This document shows, in pieces, positions 37,303 to 50,355 of a DNA stretch of 64,000 nt. Under the pieces are notes generated by a model. It saw only the letters and a program-made list of their open reading frames with translations. It was not told the origin of the DNA and did no database searches. Within the stretch, counting starts at the first letter, position 1, and every line of letters begins with the position of its first letter. Made by a program: the position numbers and the translations under genes. Where the stretch lies: positions 4,526,001-4,590,000 of the forward strand of contig CM102288.1 in NCBI GenBank assembly GCA_046563655.1, in the 5' to 3' direction. Source of the stretch: Yuukianura sp. NJ FZ-2021 (Eukaryota).

Positions 37303-38672
37303 ACCACCGGAGCCACCAACTTCCCCACCGACACTTCAATGAAACACACGCTGAAAATCCACCACCAAATCGACTGCACAATGTTCACTGGATGCTCATC
37401 GACTTTTCAAAGTTGGAATTGCTAACTTGGAACTTTGGGTTGAGTGAAGAAAAGATAATGATAGGAATTAAGGTTAGTGAATTATGGATGATTAATTATA
37501 GAGCAAAGTGTGGAGGTGGCTTACGTAAGAAAACGTGTGCCTAACTTAATAGTTACTTCTTCCGTCACTCTCTCTCTTCTACATTACATGACCTTTCGCT
37601 TTTCTAAGAAAAACCAAAACAAACGGAACCTGTTATTATTTCACTTTGATGAGTTTTACCGCGCAATTATAACTCCAATATTTTTAATTTTACGAAATTA
37701 GTAGTTTTGATTGAAAACATACTTCTTGTTTTTCTGGTTTAGTTGGATATTATTTAAATAAAACAACAATAATTTGAAAACAATCCTGAAAAAGTCAAAA
37801 ATTGGCAGTAAAAATCAAAATTTTAATTCAGGTTATTTTGTTGAACTACTGAAAACATTGTCTGACCGCTTGACCCAGTGTGATGGTTATCTTGACCCGG
37901 GATTTTAATTTAACTCAATTAAATTGGTTTACTAATTATCGTGAATGGACCATTTTTAACTTTAGTTTTAAAAAAACTTATTAGTTTTGACTTTTGAAAC
38001 TTGATTAAAATTAATGATGGGATATTCTACTTGTTACGACAAAAATTTTGGGTAAAACGATTTCTATTTTAAAAATTTTAGAAAAATTTATTGTTTTACT
38101 CTACATTGTATTGTATTGAGTGAAAAATTTTAGTAGGTGGAAAGTAGCACTTCAGCCAAAAAGAAATTCAAGGCGAATCGCATTCGCAGATTTTTTTTTA
38201 ACGTGGAGTGACTCATCTGTGGAGCAAAAAACGAAATCAAGGGCAGTACAGATTCATTTCGACGAAAAACGATTTCAAACTTTCAAATTCTCTCTTTAGT
38301 GTTCAAGCAAAGTAATCCAAGCATAACTGTTTCTGCTTCTGCTTCGTGTAGTCGATTCACCTTTCGGGAGAAAATTTTGTTGAAAACTTTGCAAAATTTT
38401 CTAGAAAAAAATTACGTTAAAAGTTTCCAAAGTTTGGTGAGTTTTGGTAGGAATTAACGTTAAAGGCATCATGAAAATACTTTGTGTTAATTCTCCGCTT
38501 TCTAGGATTAAATCAAATCATTCACTGGTAAGTTCAAGCTAATTTTTAAGTTTTAAAATTATTTGACCAAAATTCACCGTGTCAAAATTTTGTTTTCTAA
38601 GGCCTAACTTTTCCGTTTCCTTTTCAGTTATTCTCGTTTGATAGGAAAAAGTGAAAGGTCAAGGTCACGAAA

Positions 38673-39414
38673 ATGGACATTTCTAAGACAGCCGCTGCTG
38701 GAGAGGTCATTGCCACTTTCAAACTGGTATTAGTTGGGGATGGTGGAACAGGAAAAACTACATTTGTCAAGAGACATCTCACTGGAGAATTCGAGAAAAA
38801 ATATGAAGCTACGATGGGCGTGGAAGTTCGACCTTTGACCTTCAGCACCACGCGAGGACTCATCAATTTCCAGATCTGGGACACCGCTGGACAAGAAAAA
38901 TTTGGAAGTCTTCGAGACTGTTACTACATTGGGGTATATGGCTACGCAATGATTTAGGTCAACACTTTACGATTTAAGGCGGGAACTAAAACGTTTTTCA
39001 AAATTTCAGGCGAATTGTGCTATCATTCTATTTGACGTAACGAGCCGCGCTACGTACAAGAACGTGGTCAACTGGCACCGTGACCTCGTCCGTGTCGCTG
39101 ACACAGTCCCTATCGTCCTCTGCGGCAACAAAGTTGACATTAAGGATCGAAAGGTCACGGCAAAATCAATCACTTTTCACCGCAAGAAGAACTTGCAGTA
39201 CTACGACATCAGTGCCAAGAGCAACTACAACTATGAGAAACCGTTTCTTTGGCTCATGCGCAAACTCATTGGGGACAATGCGCTGGAATTGGTGGCAATG
39301 CCTACACTGACCCCTCCAGAAATAACTTTGGACGCAGCTACACTGGCGAGGTTGGAGCAAGAAGTACGAGACGCCGTCAACATTCCGCTTCCTGATGACG
39401 ATGAAGACCTTTAA
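38673..39414 (+). CDS. Ran: Divergent Ran GTPase (exons 38673-38933, 39011-39414)
   Basis: [62 protein letters not shown] and the acidic tail LPDDDEDL. Many substitutions relative to canonical Ran. Confidence 0.93.
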
Positions 39415-39999: not shown

Positions 40000-41929
40000 A
40001 TGGAAGGACAAGGCGATATGGACGTGGAAATAGCAACACAGCACAAAGTTTCGATTCAAAACATTCCAGAAGAGGTGAGTTTTGCATTAGGCAAACGAAT
40101 TTACGAGCTTTCTCTTTTTTTACATTCTTTTTTTTTGTAGGCTTTCTCTGAAATACTTTCGTTCCTTCCGGCCAAGGACATTATGACATGCCGTCTCGTT
40201 AGTCGCAGTTGGAGAGACGACCTAGCCATTCAGAAGTTCCTGCGTGAAAGTCACAAGTCCATTCACTTCCGCAGAGTCACAGACATCAAGTACTTCGAAT
40301 GGCTCATGCGCACTACTCCAGGAACCAGAATTCCGTTTTCCAAGTTTACGTTCCATGTTGACCAAGACATTGCTCCAATCGATATTGAGAATTTCATGAA
40401 CAGCTCAAATGAACGCACAGGACTTGCTTTCGAGTTCAAAGTTAAGAAGCATGTGACCTTTCGACCTCTGGAGTGGAATATGGAAAGTAGTCCATTCTGG
40501 GGCATAGATGACTATGCCGCGTCAGTCCACAAAGTGCTTCTGCGCACTTCAAACCTAACATCTCTATCACTCATCGTTGACTACCAATCGGAATTTCCTG
40601 TCTCGGATGACACAAGCTACATTCAAGCATTTCGAAACCTACGAAAGTTCAAGGTCAAATTTCTTCTGGTCGATTATGCCTCTGTACTTCTGCAACGGGA
40701 AGATGCTGCTGACCAGGAAATCACACTGTTTGAAAAAGTGATAAAATATTCTCCTCGTCTAAAAGTGCTGTCGCTACTTTACTATCCTTATTTCTGCCGA
40801 GTCGACTACGATTATCCTGACATGCCAGTGGATCGTATGGGTATTGCACTTGCCAACTACGCTGACTACACAATGCGGACAAGATATTTACGAAAACTTC
40901 CAGATTTTCTAAGCCTTCTGCGCTCGCGTTCAACAAAAGTCAAACTTCGGCTGGGAATTGTCACCGATAGATTTCAAGATGTTTGGAATCGCCTCGTAGC
41001 CTTGATTCCACAACCCAGAATTGTCGCTCTTGCCATTTCACTTCCGACTGAACTTGACACGACACTGAGAACTTCAATTTGGAATGGAATTCAAACTTTG
41101 CCTCTGGTGAAACTCAAGTTCTTTGAAGACCGCCCTCACTACGACGACATCCCAGCGTTACCGACAGCCACTTTCCAAAATCTGCGCCAACTACGCTTGA
41201 CCAGTGTCCAAAACATTACGTCAAACGGAGGGCGCTTATTGTTTCCAAACTTGAAGAAACTGAGTGTGTGTTTAAGCGACACTGAAGACGATGGTCGCGC
41301 TGTTCATCCAGATTTTGATGGATTTTGTTCCTTGGTTGCTGGTGTGCCTCGGCTGGAACATCTCAAGCTAACTGGAAATCCATGGGAGGTCGTGACAGGC
41401 CAGCCGTACAGTATCGAATTGTGTGAAGTAGTTCAGGACTACGTAGTTGACCTGGTCGACCTCAAGCATTTGGAAGACAGAGTAACCGGCATAACCAAAA
41501 ACCCGATTCGGGAACTTAAAAGTAAGTTTCCGCCATAATGCTATTGGATCTAAATGCATTTGACACAAATTCCTTAGTTTTACATCTAAACGTACAACGG
41601 AAGTGTAACAACTGAATTTTTAGATTTGAAGTCCCTCGAGCTGAAGCTGACACCAGACGACATGTATTGCGTTCTGTTTGCATCCGTGACTGGCAGGCTC
41701 CAACGTCTGTCCCACATTATTTTTGCGAAGCACGACGATGACCTTACACACGTAAATTATGAGCATTTCGATTTTTTTAAATTCTAACATGAGGAATAAT
41801 AATATTTGTTAGTGTGTTTACCAGGATGGAATTACGCGTCACCCTTCTGAGTTAGATGGAAGTGCTGCTGCCAGCATAATCCGCAACTATCATGACAAAA
41901 TTAGCTTCCTTAGCGGACACAAGATATAA
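40000..41929 (+). CDS. F-box / LRR-like protein (exons 40000-40074, 40141-41521, 41624-41751, 41825-41929)
   Basis: F-box IQNIPEE|AFSEILSFLPAKDIMTCRLVSRSWR, followed by degenerate LRRs (NLTSLSL, NLRKFKV, NLRQLRL, NLKKLSV, RLEHLKL). The 3' end is less certain. Confidence 0.85.
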
Positions 41930-43625: not shown

Positions 43626-45408
43626 ATGTCTTGGTTTAAAATGTCGCGGAGTGTGGTTGTCCTTGGAGCAGTTCTGCTCAGTATCCTGGAGACGGTACGC
43701 GGAGAGGCACATTGTAGCAAGCGACGGTACGATGGGATCCGGTTTAGTGACGGATCCATGCGGGCATTCAACCAAAACCTGCGATGTGACGCCTTGTACC
43801 AATGGACTGTGAATGAGTACTGCTGTTACGACAACTACGACGCAGCATTGAGCCGCCCATTTTGTTGCCACTCGGAGACGTACAAGCTCCTTGTCGCAGT
43901 TGGCATCATCTGCGCCATGGTTCTATCTGCGTCACTCTGCATGTTCCTATGTTGGTGCTACAATTTGCCACACCTTCTTCTCAAGGTTCTAACCTGTGGG
44001 AAGTTCAGTTTGTAAGAGAAAAATCAATTTTAAAAAGACTGTTTTAAAAAAGTTTCAAAAATTCATGACGTCTTCCTCTTTTCCAAAAACAATCGGCTAA
44101 TTAATAATAAAGTAGAAAAATTTAATATCATAAAGTAGCGAAAGGAAAACATGAAAAGGGCAGTGCATAGCTTTCTTTTGTGATAAATTTTTGAAACGAA
44201 AGCATTTTAAGTTGTAGAATTGTTGTTTTAAATTTTTTTTTTAATTTTCTTAGGAATGACTATATGAAAAAGACAAAAATGAACGGACCTTACGTCGATC
44301 CGAGTTTCTACGCAGGCGAACCGTTTTGGACGAGCGAAGGATCCGAATTTTCGCATTACCCGCTTCGCCCGATGCCCCCACGCATCTTCTACCCGGTTCC
44401 AGCCAAAATGGATCTGCGCCGATGGTCCAATCAGCGTCAGTACAACAACGGACAAACTCCGCTCTTTGTCCTCGCGAGTCGTCAGTTTACTCGGAATCCC
44501 TATTCGGCTCGGCCTAACGACCGCGGATCGGCCTCTTCAAGCATCAGGTACGACCTGGAGGTTTTTCAAAATTTTAAAATTTTCAAAAAATTGTAAAACT
44601 TGAATTTGGAACAGTGGTCCTTCTGGGATGCACGATGGGGGTGGAGTCAACTCCAGCCGCCGCTCAAGTACTAGTTCCTGTGCCCACTACGACGCTCACC
44701 GATTCCACCCGACTTCATTCGGTTTCAAAGTTCACATCGGTAGGAACTTCGTTAATTAATCAAATGCTTCTTCACAACAACTCAATTATTTACTCAAAAT
44801 CCGCCAAGTTCTTGTCCTTGTTTTAAAAATTCATTTTTTAAAAATCTACTTTAGATGAAGTAGATGCTGCCAGTGAGCTGCTCGAAGCCCTAAAATGCTT
44901 GGACGAAAAAGACAAAAACTTCTCAATTCCAAAAGTCAAGGAAGAGACGGAACTGGATCTTGAAAATGAAAATGAAACGGTATCCGAGCAGTATCGTGAC
45001 ACCCGAAGGAATCCGAATCGTCCGAAGCACACTCCGAGACCTGCCGAGGTCACGCCAGCTCCACCGCCTGTGATCGTTGCCACTCACAAGGTCAGACCAC
45101 CACCACCTCCGCCTCAGATGTTAGATGTGTCGAAGCTAACTGGAGTACAGGGTCAGAGAACGTTGTCAGGAACGTCATTTCGTCGTCACCTCGTGAGAGG
45201 CGCTAGTATTGACTCCGCCCCTAGCTCCACCTCTACTCTACTGGAGTCAATCAGTGAAGAACGTTCTGCAATGCGATCAGTTAACACTCATCAACATGAC
45301 GACGAACCCCCTACTTACTCAAATTCTCTTCTGCCCGGGTACATTCCGGAAGAAATGGAGCCTGACCTACTACAAGACAAAGCTAGAAAAAGTATCAGCA
45401 CGGCTTAA
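43626..45408 (+). CDS. Shisa-like single-pass membrane protein with Pro-rich tail and PPxY (exons 43626-44011, 44254-44547, 44615-44740, 44855-45408)
   Basis: Signal peptide, Cys-rich ectodomain (C..C..CC..CC), TM helix and juxtamembrane CWC. The donor TT|GTAAGA at 44012 joins in frame to the downstream ORFs, which carry PPPPPP and EPPTY. Confidence 0.75.
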
Positions 45409-45771
45409 GAACTGGTTAATTGTTAGCGGAATTAACAAAATGCACCTAATTGAACAATCGGTCTAAAAAGTTGATTTACAAAGAGTTAGCAAATCTTGAC
45501 CCTAAGTTTAGTTACACCAAAACTTAATTAAGTTGCAAATGCATACTATCCCAAAGTGTAATTTATTAGGAAGGTTAAGTGTCAAATTCAAATGTGATAC
45601 TCGCAGGATGATACTGCAAAAGTATAATAGTTCCGGAACAATCGGCAATTAGTAATTGAAACGTTAGAATATTTCACAGGGAGTAACATTCAAAAGCATC
45701 AGCACAGTAATATCTTTCTTACTAAGACAAGAGGCTACTTAATAAACTACTAAAGTACTAATTAACTTTTG

Positions 45772-46074
45772 TTACTGCTCAGTGTTACCGTTATTGCTGC
45801 TGGTGGTAGTTGTTTGAATGCTGATGTGATTTCCTTCCAATATATGCGTTCCAGCTCCACTCATCATAGCAGCATTAAATCCTTCTCGAGTTGCAAACGT
45901 CACAAATCCATATCCTTTGCTTAGTCCACTGCTCTTGTCAAAGATAACAATAGCATTTTGTACAGGCCCGAATGATGAAGCAAACAAGCGAAGTTCGGGA
46001 GATCCAATTGTCCATGGCAAGTTGCCCATAAAGACTCGGTAGAGGCTCCGAGCAGCGTTGCCTGTAGCCGACAT
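45772..46074 (-). CDS. SLIRP: SLIRP-like single-RRM protein, 100 aa, intronless
   Basis: RVFMGNLPWTIGS.EL..F.S.FGPV..A.VIFDK.SGLSKGYGFVTF...HILEG. The LPWT RNP2 variant and the ~100-aa size are typical of SLIRP. Confidence 0.8.
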   Translation of the reverse strand: MSATGNAARSLYRVFMGNLPWTIGSPELRLFASSFGPVQNAIVIFDKSSGLSKGYGFVTFATREGFNAAMMSGAGTHILEGNHISIQTTTTSSNNGNTEQ

Positions 46075-46085
46075 GCTGCAGTTAC

Positions 46086-47450
46086 TTAGGCAGAGGAAGT
46101 CGAAGCGTTGGGAACTGAGGAACCTTTGAGAGAGATTTCCAGTAGTTGAATAGTATGACCTTGAAGAAGGCTGGGAAGGTCGAGGTCACAGGAATTGGCA
46201 AGGTCGTGATACAGAATGTGCTTGCACTCCAGTCCCCACTTCTTCAGCAAAGACACAATGGTCCAATCGCTACTTCGCTCTTGATATGTCGTCAGGAACT
46301 TCGCCTGGAATTGTAAAGTACCGTGTGTTCGTCTGCTAACTTTAAAAACTTTCCCGCCGCCCCTTTTTTCTCAATGAATTAAACGAGAAAAAAAGGGTCA
46401 CGGGGAAAGTTTTTAAAGTTAGCAGACGAACACACGGTAGAACTTAGCAAATTACTTCAATTTCTAACGGTAAGTCATAAAAAATATTAACTTTACCTTT
46501 GGATTCCTTTCAAGAAGGTATGACACCGTACACAACAAATCTTCAAAAACGCACGGGTCGTAGAAGCAGTCAGAACCGATAATTAGGTCAACTGGTCCCA
46601 AATTAATTACTTCGCTTAGAAAGAATCCCCACGTAATCCCGATAACATGAACACGGTTTGCAACCCCGTTGGCTTCTGCGCTGCTCCTAGCTTGTTCCAA
46701 ACAATGGGGCAGCTTAGACGAATCGGACAATGTCACTTGAGCTCCACACAGCGATGCTACAATTCCAGGCAATGCTGTTCCAGCGCCGAGTTCCAGTACC
46801 TGTAAATCAAAAATCAATTTATCATTCAATTAACATTCAATTAACGGAAAGGCAATTTCAAAATTCACAAAATAGTTTGAAACGTGGCATGTCAACAAAT
46901 GAAACCATTTATAGCAGGGTAGTTATCGTCATAATGTGCATAATGTGACACCTTACCTCACAATACCAACGCCAACCAATGTACTTACCGGTAAATTAAA
47001 TTAATTGATTGAAGCTAATTAACATGTGCTTTACCTTTTTATTGGCGAGAAGATGTCTATTTTCGAATAGGTACCAAGAGAGCACATGTGCTGATGGCCA
47101 TACATAAAGCCCATAGGCTGCTTCAAGTCTCTGCGCAAGTTAGGTATAACGGTAAGTTTTTAACATAAACACATGTTTTTTTTATACTGACAAACAATCA
47201 ATAAACAACATATTGAGGCCGTTAACTTTCGAAACAGGATTTGAGGACAGGTCACGGAGTGACGGACTAATCGACAGGAATGTAGTAGTGAAAGCAGCAA
47301 CGTAATTACCTCAGGGATGGTCACAGTCAACGATTCATCCTCCTTCCCACATTTAGATTTGGATCGGAACAGAAACCGTTTGATTGATGTCCGCTGCTGG
47401 GTTTCATTCGTTACTTCGGTAGTCGAGCTTTGTGCAATGGAACTGGCCAT
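46086..47450 (-). CDS. METTL23: Methyltransferase-like 23 (exons 47450-47310, 47130-47035, 46799-46497, 46304-46086)
   Basis: IPE, YGLYVWPSAHVLSWYL, VLELGAGTALPGI, GITWG, DLIIGSDCFYDP..FED, TTYQERSSDWTI..LLKKWGL.C, HTIQLLEI. Confidence 0.93.
46321..46437. mobile_element. 117-bp Tc1/mariner-type MITE with perfect 35-bp TIRs and TA TSD, in METTL23 intron 3
   Basis: 46321-46355 is the exact reverse complement of 46403-46437, with TA at 46319-46320 and 46438-46439. Confidence 0.9.
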
Positions 47451-47485: not shown

Positions 47486-47655
47486 GGTTGGAGAGTAGAT
47501 CCGCAGTCTGTTTTTCTTTTAGTGCGAGTTAGGTTATCAAATCAGGACACAGTGCACGGTGTTGAAGGTGAGGGGTGCCGTGCACTGTGTCCTGATTTGA
47601 TAACCTAACTAAAAGAACTAAAAAGAAAAACAGACTGCGGATCTACTCTCCAACC
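47486..47655. mobile_element. 170-bp foldback MITE with ~75-bp arms and perfect 8-bp TSD, in the METTL23/SIRT7 divergent promoter
   Basis: GGTTGGAGAGTAGATCCGCAGTCTG... / ...CAGACTGCGGATCTACTCTCCAACC plus inner arms ending CACAGTGCACGG / CCGTGCACTGTG. ATTCAATT is duplicated at 47478-47485 and 47656-47663. Confidence 0.9.
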
Positions 47656-47785: not shown

Positions 47786-50355
47786 ATGGATTCTGGAAGA
47801 TCAGGACACGGTAAAGGATACTCTATCGGAGTCGGACATGGACAAGCTAAGACTCGAGAGCAAGGTCATGGAAAAACAGGAAGTCTTCATAAAGTAGAAA
47901 CCAATGATAAGTATGGCGGGTCATCATCGCAATTGCACTCCAAAGAAGTCAAGGTCAAGATTGATCCAGAAATAAACTCGCAACTGTTGTACCATTATCA
48001 ACAGTTGTTCCCTCACTTGTATCATGTCAATCTTCCTCCTTCAGTTCCGATTTCAGCTCCACAGGTTCCACAACCGTCTCTTCCCTTCATTCAATTTTCA
48101 AAAAACTGCCAAAACTTCAATCGTCTCTTCCATTCTTCTTTTGACGAAGACTCATCATCACCATCAACTACTAATCAGGAATTGGATCCTCCAGCTAGTA
48201 ACTGTGATACGAAAGAGCATGTCAAGGTTGAAGTAAAAGAAGAAATCCTCCTCGAAATTGAAATTGAAACGGAGGAGCCGCCTATTGATTACAGCATGAA
48301 CACTGCTGCTATTACTAATTTGCAGTTGAAAGTAAATGATTCGGTAAAATTCGTCGATTCGGACCTGGAGTCGCCCACTCTTGATTATAAACAGGAGGAA
48401 TCATTGGAAGCAAGTGACGATGACCACTCTCATCCTCCGAAAAAATCAAAACTGCGGGGAGAGTCGATTCCAAACGACATTGAATTCGGGGTCAAAGTTG
48501 AACGAACTGGTCAACGGAAATCAAATCGCCTTGTACAACAATCCACTTCGTGCAAGACTCAGGAAGCGCAAATTATGCGCCGTGTAAGTTTTTTAACGAT
48601 AAATCGATGACTTCTTTTTGGAAGGGTTAAAGTTTAATTGAGTCCATTTTTGTTATTTTTGTCTGTGCAGATCACGCTTATACTGAAGAAGGACATCGAA
48701 GCCATGACAGAGGAAGACAAAAGTTTGCTGGAGGCTTTCCCAACACTCGTGCGTATAGTTCGAAAACGATTTGAAGCTCGACTTCTGTCCACGGAACGGC
48801 TAAAGGAGTTCGAAGATTCACCAGAAGTATTGGAACTGAAGTGCAATCAATTAGCCGAAATAATTAGCAGTGCCAAGTATTTAGTAGTTTACTCCGGAGC
48901 TGGAATCAGCACTTCAGCAAATATTCCTGACTTTCGTGGAACTAGTGGCTTATGGACTCTGTTCAAGAGTGGACAGAGTCTGGACACTCAAAATGTTGAC
49001 ACACAAGTACTGACCTCAGCTGACCCAACGACGACACATATGGCGCTCAAGCAGTTGTACGCTGATGGTATCGTCAAGCATATCGTATCTCAAAACTGTG
49101 ACGGACTCCATCTACGATCCGGAATACCTAAGATGGGCCTTAGCGAAATTCATGGAAATATGGTAATTTTCTAAAATTGCAGAAAATTTTTAAAGTTCTC
49201 ATTTTAAGAATTGATTTTTCAGTATATTGAAGTCTGTGGAAAATGTGGCAGAGATTACGTTCGGATTTTCGATGTGGCTGAAAATACTAGACGGTAAAAA
49301 CAAATTTTAAATTCTATATTCAATTTCAATTTTCGAAATTTCAGTTTTTCAGTTTTATCAACAATTTTTTCTCATTTTTAGACACGAACACCGAACTGGA
49401 CGGCGGTGCTACAATTGTCACAATTCCCTTCGTGATACAATCGTTCATTTTGGAGAGCGTGGAAAATTACGTTGGCCAATTAATTGGGCCGGAGCGGAGT
49501 ACAATGCTCATCGGGCAGACGTCATTTTATGCATTGGGAGTAGCCTCAAAGTACTACGACGGTAAGTTACGATATATCTTCTCATATGACCTCGTCAAGT
49601 CAAGTCAACTCGACCTCTGACCTCTGTCTTTTACAGATACCCTTGGCTTTGGTGCATGGATAAGCCTGCCACAAAAAGGCCTAAGCTTGTCATTGTAAGT
49701 TTTTCAATTGACAAACTCAGAACCAATTACTTCTAATTCTAACTAATGCTGTTTACCAGGTAAATCTGATGTGGACTCCAAAGGATCAGTTTGCAGCTCT
49801 CAAAATTCACGGTAACTGACACAATATTCCAAATTTTAAGCAGTACTTAATAGGCGAGGAAATACTGTATTCGATTGTTCATCGAAAACTTTGATTTGTG
49901 TTATTACAGGAAGGTGCGACGATGTGATGACTCGCGTAATGGAAAAATTGAACATGACAATTCCAGGATACAGTAGACTGGCTGATCCACTCTTTCGAAT
50001 TGCCACTCCACTTCACCTAAGCGAAGCCAGGACGATAGCAAGTCGAGAACTGGCTTTTCCTGAAAACGAACCTTTTCCTTTGAAACTCGTGGACATGAAC
50101 AACTATGTCCAGTTTGAGCCAGTATTCCGCCTGCGCTCGAATGCCAACACGAGTGACGAAGAAGCACCGGACGGTGACATGGCAAGTCTTGGAAAGGACA
50201 AGTCTAGGACGAGGTCAAGCACTGCCAAAAAACTTCCCAAGAAAGTTTCAGCGAGAAAGGAAGAAAAGAACAGGGTGATCAAGAAACGCAATGGGAATGG
50301 CTGGCTTGGGAATTTGACCCCTGGAGTCAAAATGAGAAAACGAAAGGTCAAGTAA
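47786..50355 (+). CDS. SIRT7: NAD-dependent deacylase sirtuin-7 with long N-terminal extension, 7 coding exons
   Basis: [12 protein letters not shown]...[41 protein letters not shown], Zn ligands [37 protein letters not shown]. Exons ~47786-48583, 48671-49162, 49222-49292, 49382-49561, 49638-49694, 49760-49811, 49910-50355. Confidence 0.9.

Follow-up and report, generated by a model that had tools for sequence, protein, structure and literature searches.

Nematode spliced-leader operons pack unrelated housekeeping genes head to tail, and the TURBS of caliciviruses carry the motif UGGGA. In Drosophila, 159 dicistronic pairs and 7 tricistronic sets are recorded in PMC4528330. One of the pairs, listed in File S1 of that paper as all-dicistronic, joins Drosophila melanogaster CG33714 (DmSLIRP1; PMC4267620) to CG33713, which encodes an acyl-CoA-binding protein; the two lie 59 nt apart, and the dicistron has been traced to a pancrustacean EST (PMC2276209). 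Fly Slirp1 and Slirp2 are both described as mitochondrial (PMC13274650), LRPPRC2 was reported to bind SLIRP2 only (PMC4267620), and a CG33714 mutant is listed as semi-lethal (PMC11674832). The stoned and snapin loci of Drosophila and the leaky-scanning bicistrons of green algae, as described in PMC11892635 and PMC3372440 (which cite Wall et al. 2005), have an upstream ORF without internal Met or strong-context AUGs and a downstream AUG in strong context.

The window analyzed here is a 64,000-nt stretch of contig CM102288.1 of Yuukianura sp. NJ FZ-2021 and contains no N. On its minus strand, a METTL23 gene is directly followed by a SLIRP gene (Table 1). METTL23 has four coding exons separated by GT-AG introns of phase 0, with an open frame of 252 aa, and its intron 1 occupies the same position as in the related contigs L010 and L015. 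Exon 3 matches PF10294 (Methyltransf_16), and its best named matches are METTL23 records of at most 70% identity. The downstream ORF matches PF00076 (RRM_1); the top four Atlas rows for it are all named SLIRP (scores 0.91-0.93), and L024, a member of the SLIRP alignment, is identical to the RefSeq "SLIRP-like" protein XP_025422452.1 of Sipha flava. Both gene names given in the first-pass annotation were borne out by these matches. Human SLIRP (8any_A6) was matched at 8.7e-11 and 3.8e-16, yet it was outranked by other RRM proteins in sequence score. METTL23 is present in a single copy and SLIRP in one close copy in the 98.7-Mb genome. In the METTL23 tree, from which 17 of 20 Hymenoptera were left out and Liolophura was dropped (also from the Met count) owing to a missing motif, the window sequence and L009-L014 cluster with two Orchesella METTL23 records (support 100/98), which marks the animal as springtail-like. 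The same annotation had placed the METTL23 stop, an 11-nt gap, and a SLIRP-like ATG out of frame with that stop at the coordinates of Table 1, and had noted an AATAAA 3' of SLIRP; both observations were confirmed, this hexamer being the sole AATAAA or ATTAAA on the minus strand from 46400 to 45400.

Table 1. Features of the METTL23-SLIRP locus and its surroundings in the window
Feature	Position	Strand	Remarks
METTL23 coding exon 1	47310..47450	-	start ATG at 47450
METTL23 exon 2	47035..47130	-	
METTL23 intron 2	46800..47034	-	235 nt, longest of 3 introns
METTL23 exon 3	46497..46799	-	Methyltransf_16 core; AUG-poor zone begins here
METTL23 exon 4	46086..46304	-	stop TAA 46088-46086; zero AUG in any frame
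Intercistronic spacer	46075..46085	-	11 nt; without AUG and without poly(A) signal
SLIRP ORF	45772..46074	-	intronless, 100 aa, one RRM; ATG at 46074, A at -3
AATAAA	45562..45567	-	likely shared poly(A) signal of the METTL23-SLIRP unit (predicted use)
Sir2-family gene exon	48638..49174	+	head-to-head with METTL23; same neighbor upstream in L019 and L021
Inverted repeat in METTL23 intron 3	46319..46439	.	51-nt arms, 92% complementary, MITE-like, fills most of the intron
Palindromic MITE	47486..47655	.	8-bp target-site duplication; ends 35 nt upstream of METTL23 ATG

Metagenome contigs were scanned with the SLIRP alignment, and the best 80 of 233 related loci were taken, 16 of them close (E ≤ 1e-19). 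Synteny in relatives had been proposed in the first-pass annotation as a check on the pairing, and it supported it: SLIRP is immediately preceded by a METTL23 of the same orientation in 14 of the 16 close loci, which are partly dependent (6 springtail-clade loci, 7 loci of one insect clade, L015-L021, and the unplaced L022), and in none of the other 64 among the best 80 of 233. The two exceptions, L023 and L024, hold just 66 and 92 nt of upstream sequence, respectively. In the METTL23 tree, L015, the tested member of the L015-L021 clade, falls among Polyneoptera and Hemiptera rows. In Orchesella dallaii, the SLIRP-like protein CAL8069027.1 and METTL23 CAL8069029.1 are recorded on a contig of equal length. 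SLIRP is 45-74% identical across alignment A2, and the fourfold sites of METTL23 are near saturation; both ORFs and their linkage are thus conserved, as in a FlyBase-type dicistron. The spacers of the 12 loci measured are 1, 4, 13, 16, 29, 42, 45, 49, 49, 49, 60, and 111 nt long and fall in all three frames (as near-duplicates, L017 and L018 entered neither the spacer nor the AUG counts, and L020 was omitted from the latter). Scans for further linked loci returned 26 bacterial methyltransferase loci from genome contigs and one distant RRM from viral contigs, all of which were set aside.

METTL23 and SLIRP are very probably transcribed together, as a single unit that has one 3' end and yields one shared mRNA. 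The support is split: this genome contributes two intact ORFs without a poly(A) signal between them, and the relatives contribute the gene order and spliced-looking molecules. Contigs L009 and L010 carry introns at the METTL23 positions of the window. L011, L013, and L014 are without those introns and run from continuous METTL23 exon-2 sequence into exon 3, the retained spacer, and SLIRP; L014 is also devoid of intron 1, which even the insect locus L015 retains, and L013 ends with AATAAA followed by 21 nt and A9. These three contigs are probably cDNA-derived, a reading limited by the genomic-type insect contigs L015-L021, which also lack introns 2-3, and by the tendency of short-read assembly to join isoforms that overlap. 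The METTL23 start codon lies beyond the reach of all four transcript-like contigs. Because the spacer measures 11 nt in the window and only 1-16 nt in four of the relatives, a METTL23 mRNA could presumably not end ahead of SLIRP unless it were cleaved within that gene. The two ORFs are intact, distinct, and on the same strand, and no 3' end separates them, which corresponds to the FlyBase-type definition of a dicistronic locus. To judge from the sequences, METTL23-SLIRP appears to be a genuine dicistronic unit that has been conserved, and it adds to the multi-gene messengers known from fruit flies. Two routes to a fused protein were tried and rejected, namely, read-through or frameshifting, because the spacers occur in all three frames and those of L013 and L021 contain in-frame stops, and in-frame splicing, because none of the three METTL23 donors reaches the SLIRP frame. 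Searches for longer or fused SLIRP forms, including representatives, returned matches dominated by multi-RRM proteins.

At the springtail-clade loci, the 3' part of the METTL23 coding sequence is depleted of out-of-frame AUGs. Compared with synonymous-codon shuffles, exons 3-4 (the last ~500 coding nt) contain 5 out-of-frame AUGs vs. 31.3 expected over 7/7 springtail-clade loci, and 0 vs. 12.8 in strong context (purine at -3). The shortage spans 100-600 nt upstream of the METTL23 stop (5 vs. 27.3 expected) and is strongest over the last 250 nt (0 vs. 15.6). In the window, the last 368 coding nt are free of AUG in any frame, and the 252-aa METTL23 has no internal Met (5 in 1194 codons over the seven loci). 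The seven loci are largely independent, with a pairwise fourfold-site identity of 0.14-0.52. No such depletion was found in the controls, which were SLIRP as the last ORF (31 observed vs. 25.2 expected), ACBD6 (114 vs. 109.9), and ten frames of the window (57 vs. 44.3), except for the low count in ACBD6 of L023 (8 vs. 12.7). The control frames of the window include a Ran-like GTPase gene at 38655-39414, recognized by eye, and an intronless 465-aa F-box-like frame at 40141-41538. Purging does not extend to METTL23 exons 1-2, where AUGs are in excess (11 vs. 6.3 expected, three loci), in contrast to exon 3 onward of the same loci (2 vs. 13.0). Seven out-of-frame AUGs lie within exons 1-2 of the window gene and open short ORFs of 3-40 codons, all ended by nt 280. 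A purine occupies position -3 in 3 of 27 internal AUGs vs. 121 of 195 in the controls, the base at -3 being partly fixed by the protein sequence. The METTL23-SLIRP spacers contain no AUG in 11/11 cases (4.2 expected). Of 14 SLIRP start codons, 13 are preceded by a purine at -3. Purging of METTL23 is weak at the insect-type loci (11 vs. 16.6 in four near-identical contigs; 4 vs. 5.9 in L015 alone).

Met is also scarce in METTL23 beyond these loci. In seven groups of Pancrustacea, it makes up 0-0.7% of the METTL23 core, compared with 2.7% in three aphid-like insects and 1.6% in nine species outside the arthropods, counts that are not phylogenetically independent; aphid cores hold 4-5 Met vs. 0-1 in 45 of 47 other pancrustacean cores. 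The absence of METTL23 from the 92 nt upstream of SLIRP in L024, the contig whose SLIRP is identical to an aphid one, suggests that aphid METTL23 may be unlinked from SLIRP. Dipteran METTL23 is also Met-poor (0.56%), though FlyBase lists CG33714-CG33713 only as a pair, and the scarcity of Met in METTL23 alone may be inherited. The METTL23 proteins of the aphid-like insects P0102, P0122, and P0123, with these 4-5 core Met, are extended at the N-terminus by a long stretch and sit on a long branch.

Most likely, SLIRP is reached by ribosomes that scan through METTL23 sequence, on either the full mRNA or a shorter RNA. Scanning is favored because AUG-purged exons 3-4, AUG-free spacers, and a purine at -3 of the SLIRP start are what scanning selects for; precedents for such selection are given in PMC11892635 and PMC3372440, with reference to Wall et al. 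2005. That the full METTL23-SLIRP mRNA serves as the template is somewhat better supported than not. Ribosomes would load at the 5' cap, and the majority would make METTL23. Some would bypass the METTL23 AUG or be captured in exons 1-2, where the short ORFs lie out of frame, after which scanning would restart. The resumed ribosomes would then traverse exons 3-4, cleared of AUGs by selection, and initiate at the SLIRP AUG, the first in strong context. The upstream ORF resembles those of stoned, snapin, and the algal bicistrons in that it is free of internal Met and of AUGs in strong context, and its downstream partner likewise starts at a strong-context AUG. Unlike in stoned and snapin, however, the first AUG of METTL23 lies in a good context (G at -3, G at +4), which speaks against scanning on the full mRNA. 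In addition, out-of-frame AUGs are numerous within the first 240 coding nt. Since the METTL23 AUG is good and exons 1-2 are rich in AUGs, pure leaky scanning does not fit, and either reinitiation after short ORFs or a second start site would be needed; the unpurged exons 1-2 fit the latter equally well. An out-of-frame AUG just 5' of the insect-type METTL23 start was observed in L015 (~847-891), where it opens a 14-codon ORF overlapping that start; this ORF could divert ribosomes towards SLIRP.

A second promoter inside METTL23 (in intron 2 or early exon 3), which the first-pass annotation had also suggested, is a possible but less probable source of SLIRP. In this case, SLIRP protein would come mainly from a shorter RNA whose leader consists of exons 3-4, the METTL23 mRNA would still carry SLIRP in its 3' region, and scanning on the full mRNA could coexist. 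Such a promoter would explain why purging begins at exon 3 and not in exons 1-2 of the same three loci. L012 starts 24 nt inside intron 2 yet is without intron 3, as expected of a shorter transcript, although it may also be a partly spliced pre-mRNA or DNA devoid of intron 3. Intron 2 is the longest METTL23 intron seen (128 nt in L010 and at least 670 nt in L009; Table 1 for the window), but it is absent from the insect-type loci. Its promoter-motif counts are near the window background and thus uninformative. Monocistronic alternatives, usually from a downstream promoter, are given for 114 of 159 FlyBase dicistronic loci in PMC4528330, but the sister pair CG33714-CG33713 is listed there as all-dicistronic. 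Moreover, exon-2 sequence is fused to exon 3 in L011, L013, and L014, all of which continue into SLIRP.

The first-pass annotation had proposed a single mRNA encoding both proteins by termination-reinitiation. The single transcription unit stood up, being supported by L011, L013, and L014; coupled reinitiation, in which ribosomes ending METTL23 would restart at the nearby SLIRP AUG, now appears unlikely. It would agree with the short spacers of several loci (1, 4, 11, 13, and 16 nt) and with purging that is strongest over the last 250 nt. However, the stop-start geometry is not fixed, as the spacers range over 1-111 nt in all frames, and the motif UGGGA is absent from the last 100 nt in 7/7 sequences, both of which set METTL23-SLIRP apart from TURBS-type systems. 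The junction RNA folds no better than shuffled sequences (z = -0.09), and purging that reaches 100-600 nt upstream of the stop is not expected under coupled reinitiation.

That ribosomes enter internally, within the 3' part of the METTL23 coding sequence, is very improbable. IRES use may be common in fly dicistrons according to PMC4528330, and entry in exon 3 followed by scanning would likewise favor the loss of AUGs, but no unusual structure was found in exon 4 plus the junction, the Rfam matches were only sub-threshold hairpins, all on inverted repeats, and synonymous sites are not conserved. Another proposal of the first-pass annotation, that the CAG before the SLIRP ATG is a cis- or trans-splice acceptor, is hardly tenable. 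The CAG and a pyrimidine-rich stretch do precede the ATG in the window, but a YAG occurs within 10 nt of the ATG in 0/10 relatives, the spacer is kept in the spliced-looking contigs, and splicing from any of the three METTL23 donors misses the SLIRP frame, so that no in-frame product results. METTL23-SLIRP shares with nematode spliced-leader operons the head-to-tail order of unrelated housekeeping genes and differs from them in having neither an intergenic poly(A) site nor a conserved acceptor and in keeping the spacer in spliced-looking RNA. An assembly deletion at the junction, which had been named as an objection, or a chance juxtaposition of the two genes can practically be dismissed because the gene order recurs in 14/16 close loci and neighboring genes also recur (the convergent downstream neighbor in L010 and the upstream Sir2-family neighbor in L019 and L021); in addition, both ORFs are intact, the window is N-free, and nothing was found in favor of either.

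The fly pair CG33714-CG33713 is alike in that a SLIRP family member shares its mRNA with an unrelated gene across a short spacer, and its SLIRP-ACBD6 order recurs in L015-L021, L023, and L024. The fly locus begins with SLIRP and is listed without a METTL23, whereas here SLIRP is the second ORF after a 252-codon METTL23. The seven insect-type contigs L015-L021 have an intronless acyl-CoA-binding/ankyrin gene (ACBD6) directly after SLIRP and thus hold the trio METTL23-SLIRP-ACBD6. In the three trio contigs checked, no poly(A) hexamer was found between the 3' end of METTL23 and the stop codon of ACBD6, except for one in the last codons of L015, and an AATAAA lies 40-44 nt past the ACBD6 stop. SLIRP has no internal Met in 504 codons when followed by ACBD6 vs. 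11 in 746 when it is last. Out-of-frame AUGs are not short in SLIRP ahead of ACBD6 (19 vs. 13.9 expected), and the spacers before ACBD6 in L015, L016, L019, and L021 contain 2-3 AUGs with short ORFs; together with the weak purging at the insect-type loci, these counts speak against purging as a general rule. The Rhynocoris gene model KAK9500639.1 fuses METTL23 and ACBD6, as would be expected if the gene predictor had skipped an ORF between them. The first-pass annotation was right that dicistronic loci are known in Drosophila but overlooked the SLIRP1-ACBD6 dicistron and the older trio.

The strongest ACBD6 candidate of this genome was located on the separate contig C1, with its own upstream region, two introns, and no SLIRP ahead of it. 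At this locus (L100, G000:C1:3911888-3915046), ACBD6 stands head-to-head with a methyltransferase-like gene, which we take by eye to be METTL6-like, and tail-to-tail with another gene read by eye as HECT-type. The simplest history would be an ancestral trio broken at different places, with METTL23-SLIRP here as a remnant of an older METTL23-SLIRP-ACBD6 unit. A more specific joint reading is offered tentatively: a METTL23-SLIRP-ACBD6 tricistron of ancestral hexapods, perhaps of pancrustaceans, may have been split differently by lineage, and springtail SLIRP may be translated only from the full mRNA by relay. The springtails would have retained the first two genes, the aphids and Drosophila the last two, and the Polyneoptera-like insects all three. 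In the relay, short out-of-frame ORFs of METTL23 exons 1-2 would divert ribosomes, which would then rescan 500 nt of AUG-purged coding sequence. If this is true, the 250-codon METTL23 coding region doubles as a tuned leader, and AUG purging is a mark of linkage across evolution.

CG5013 is presumably the fly METTL23. Neither it nor CG8021 appears in File S1 of PMC4528330, and no report of the METTL23-SLIRP link or of the METTL23-SLIRP-ACBD6 trio was found in that file or among the open-access papers listed by the literature searches. These loci extend the known fly dicistron SLIRP1-ACBD6 to a presumably older unit of three genes and show that units of this kind can be maintained from springtails to winged insects while exchanging members. 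The purge of AUGs at synonymous sites leaves a footprint from which the route to a downstream ORF can be measured; since it sets in sharply at exon 3, it offers a cheap test of rescanning against a hidden promoter. In these animals, RNAi or knockouts aimed at METTL23, SLIRP, or ACBD6, and expression values of these genes, may concern more than one gene, and gene predictors can omit SLIRP or fuse its neighbors, as in the Rhynocoris model.

The surroundings of the unit were also inspected. The Sir2-family gene (47786-50355) is preceded by a 274-aa frame without a Pfam match. The convergent gene on the plus strand downstream of SLIRP, shared with L010, has its AATAAA at 45741; that the AATAAA at 45567 is a mere complement of an acceptor of this gene was considered and not established. 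The stop of the gene is conserved at 45408. A 28-nt block at 45578-45605, located where the 3' UTRs of SLIRP and the convergent gene overlap, is identical in L010; it is unique in the genome, has no Rfam match, and might represent an alternative exon or a regulatory element acting in cis. The inverted repeat in METTL23 intron 3 is spliced out and is not part of the mechanism. The palindromic MITE upstream of METTL23 has 82 genome matches on both strands, including one copy of 99% identity. Sequences resembling a splice donor (47688) and an acceptor (47468) flank it, and it may sit in a METTL23 5'-UTR intron.
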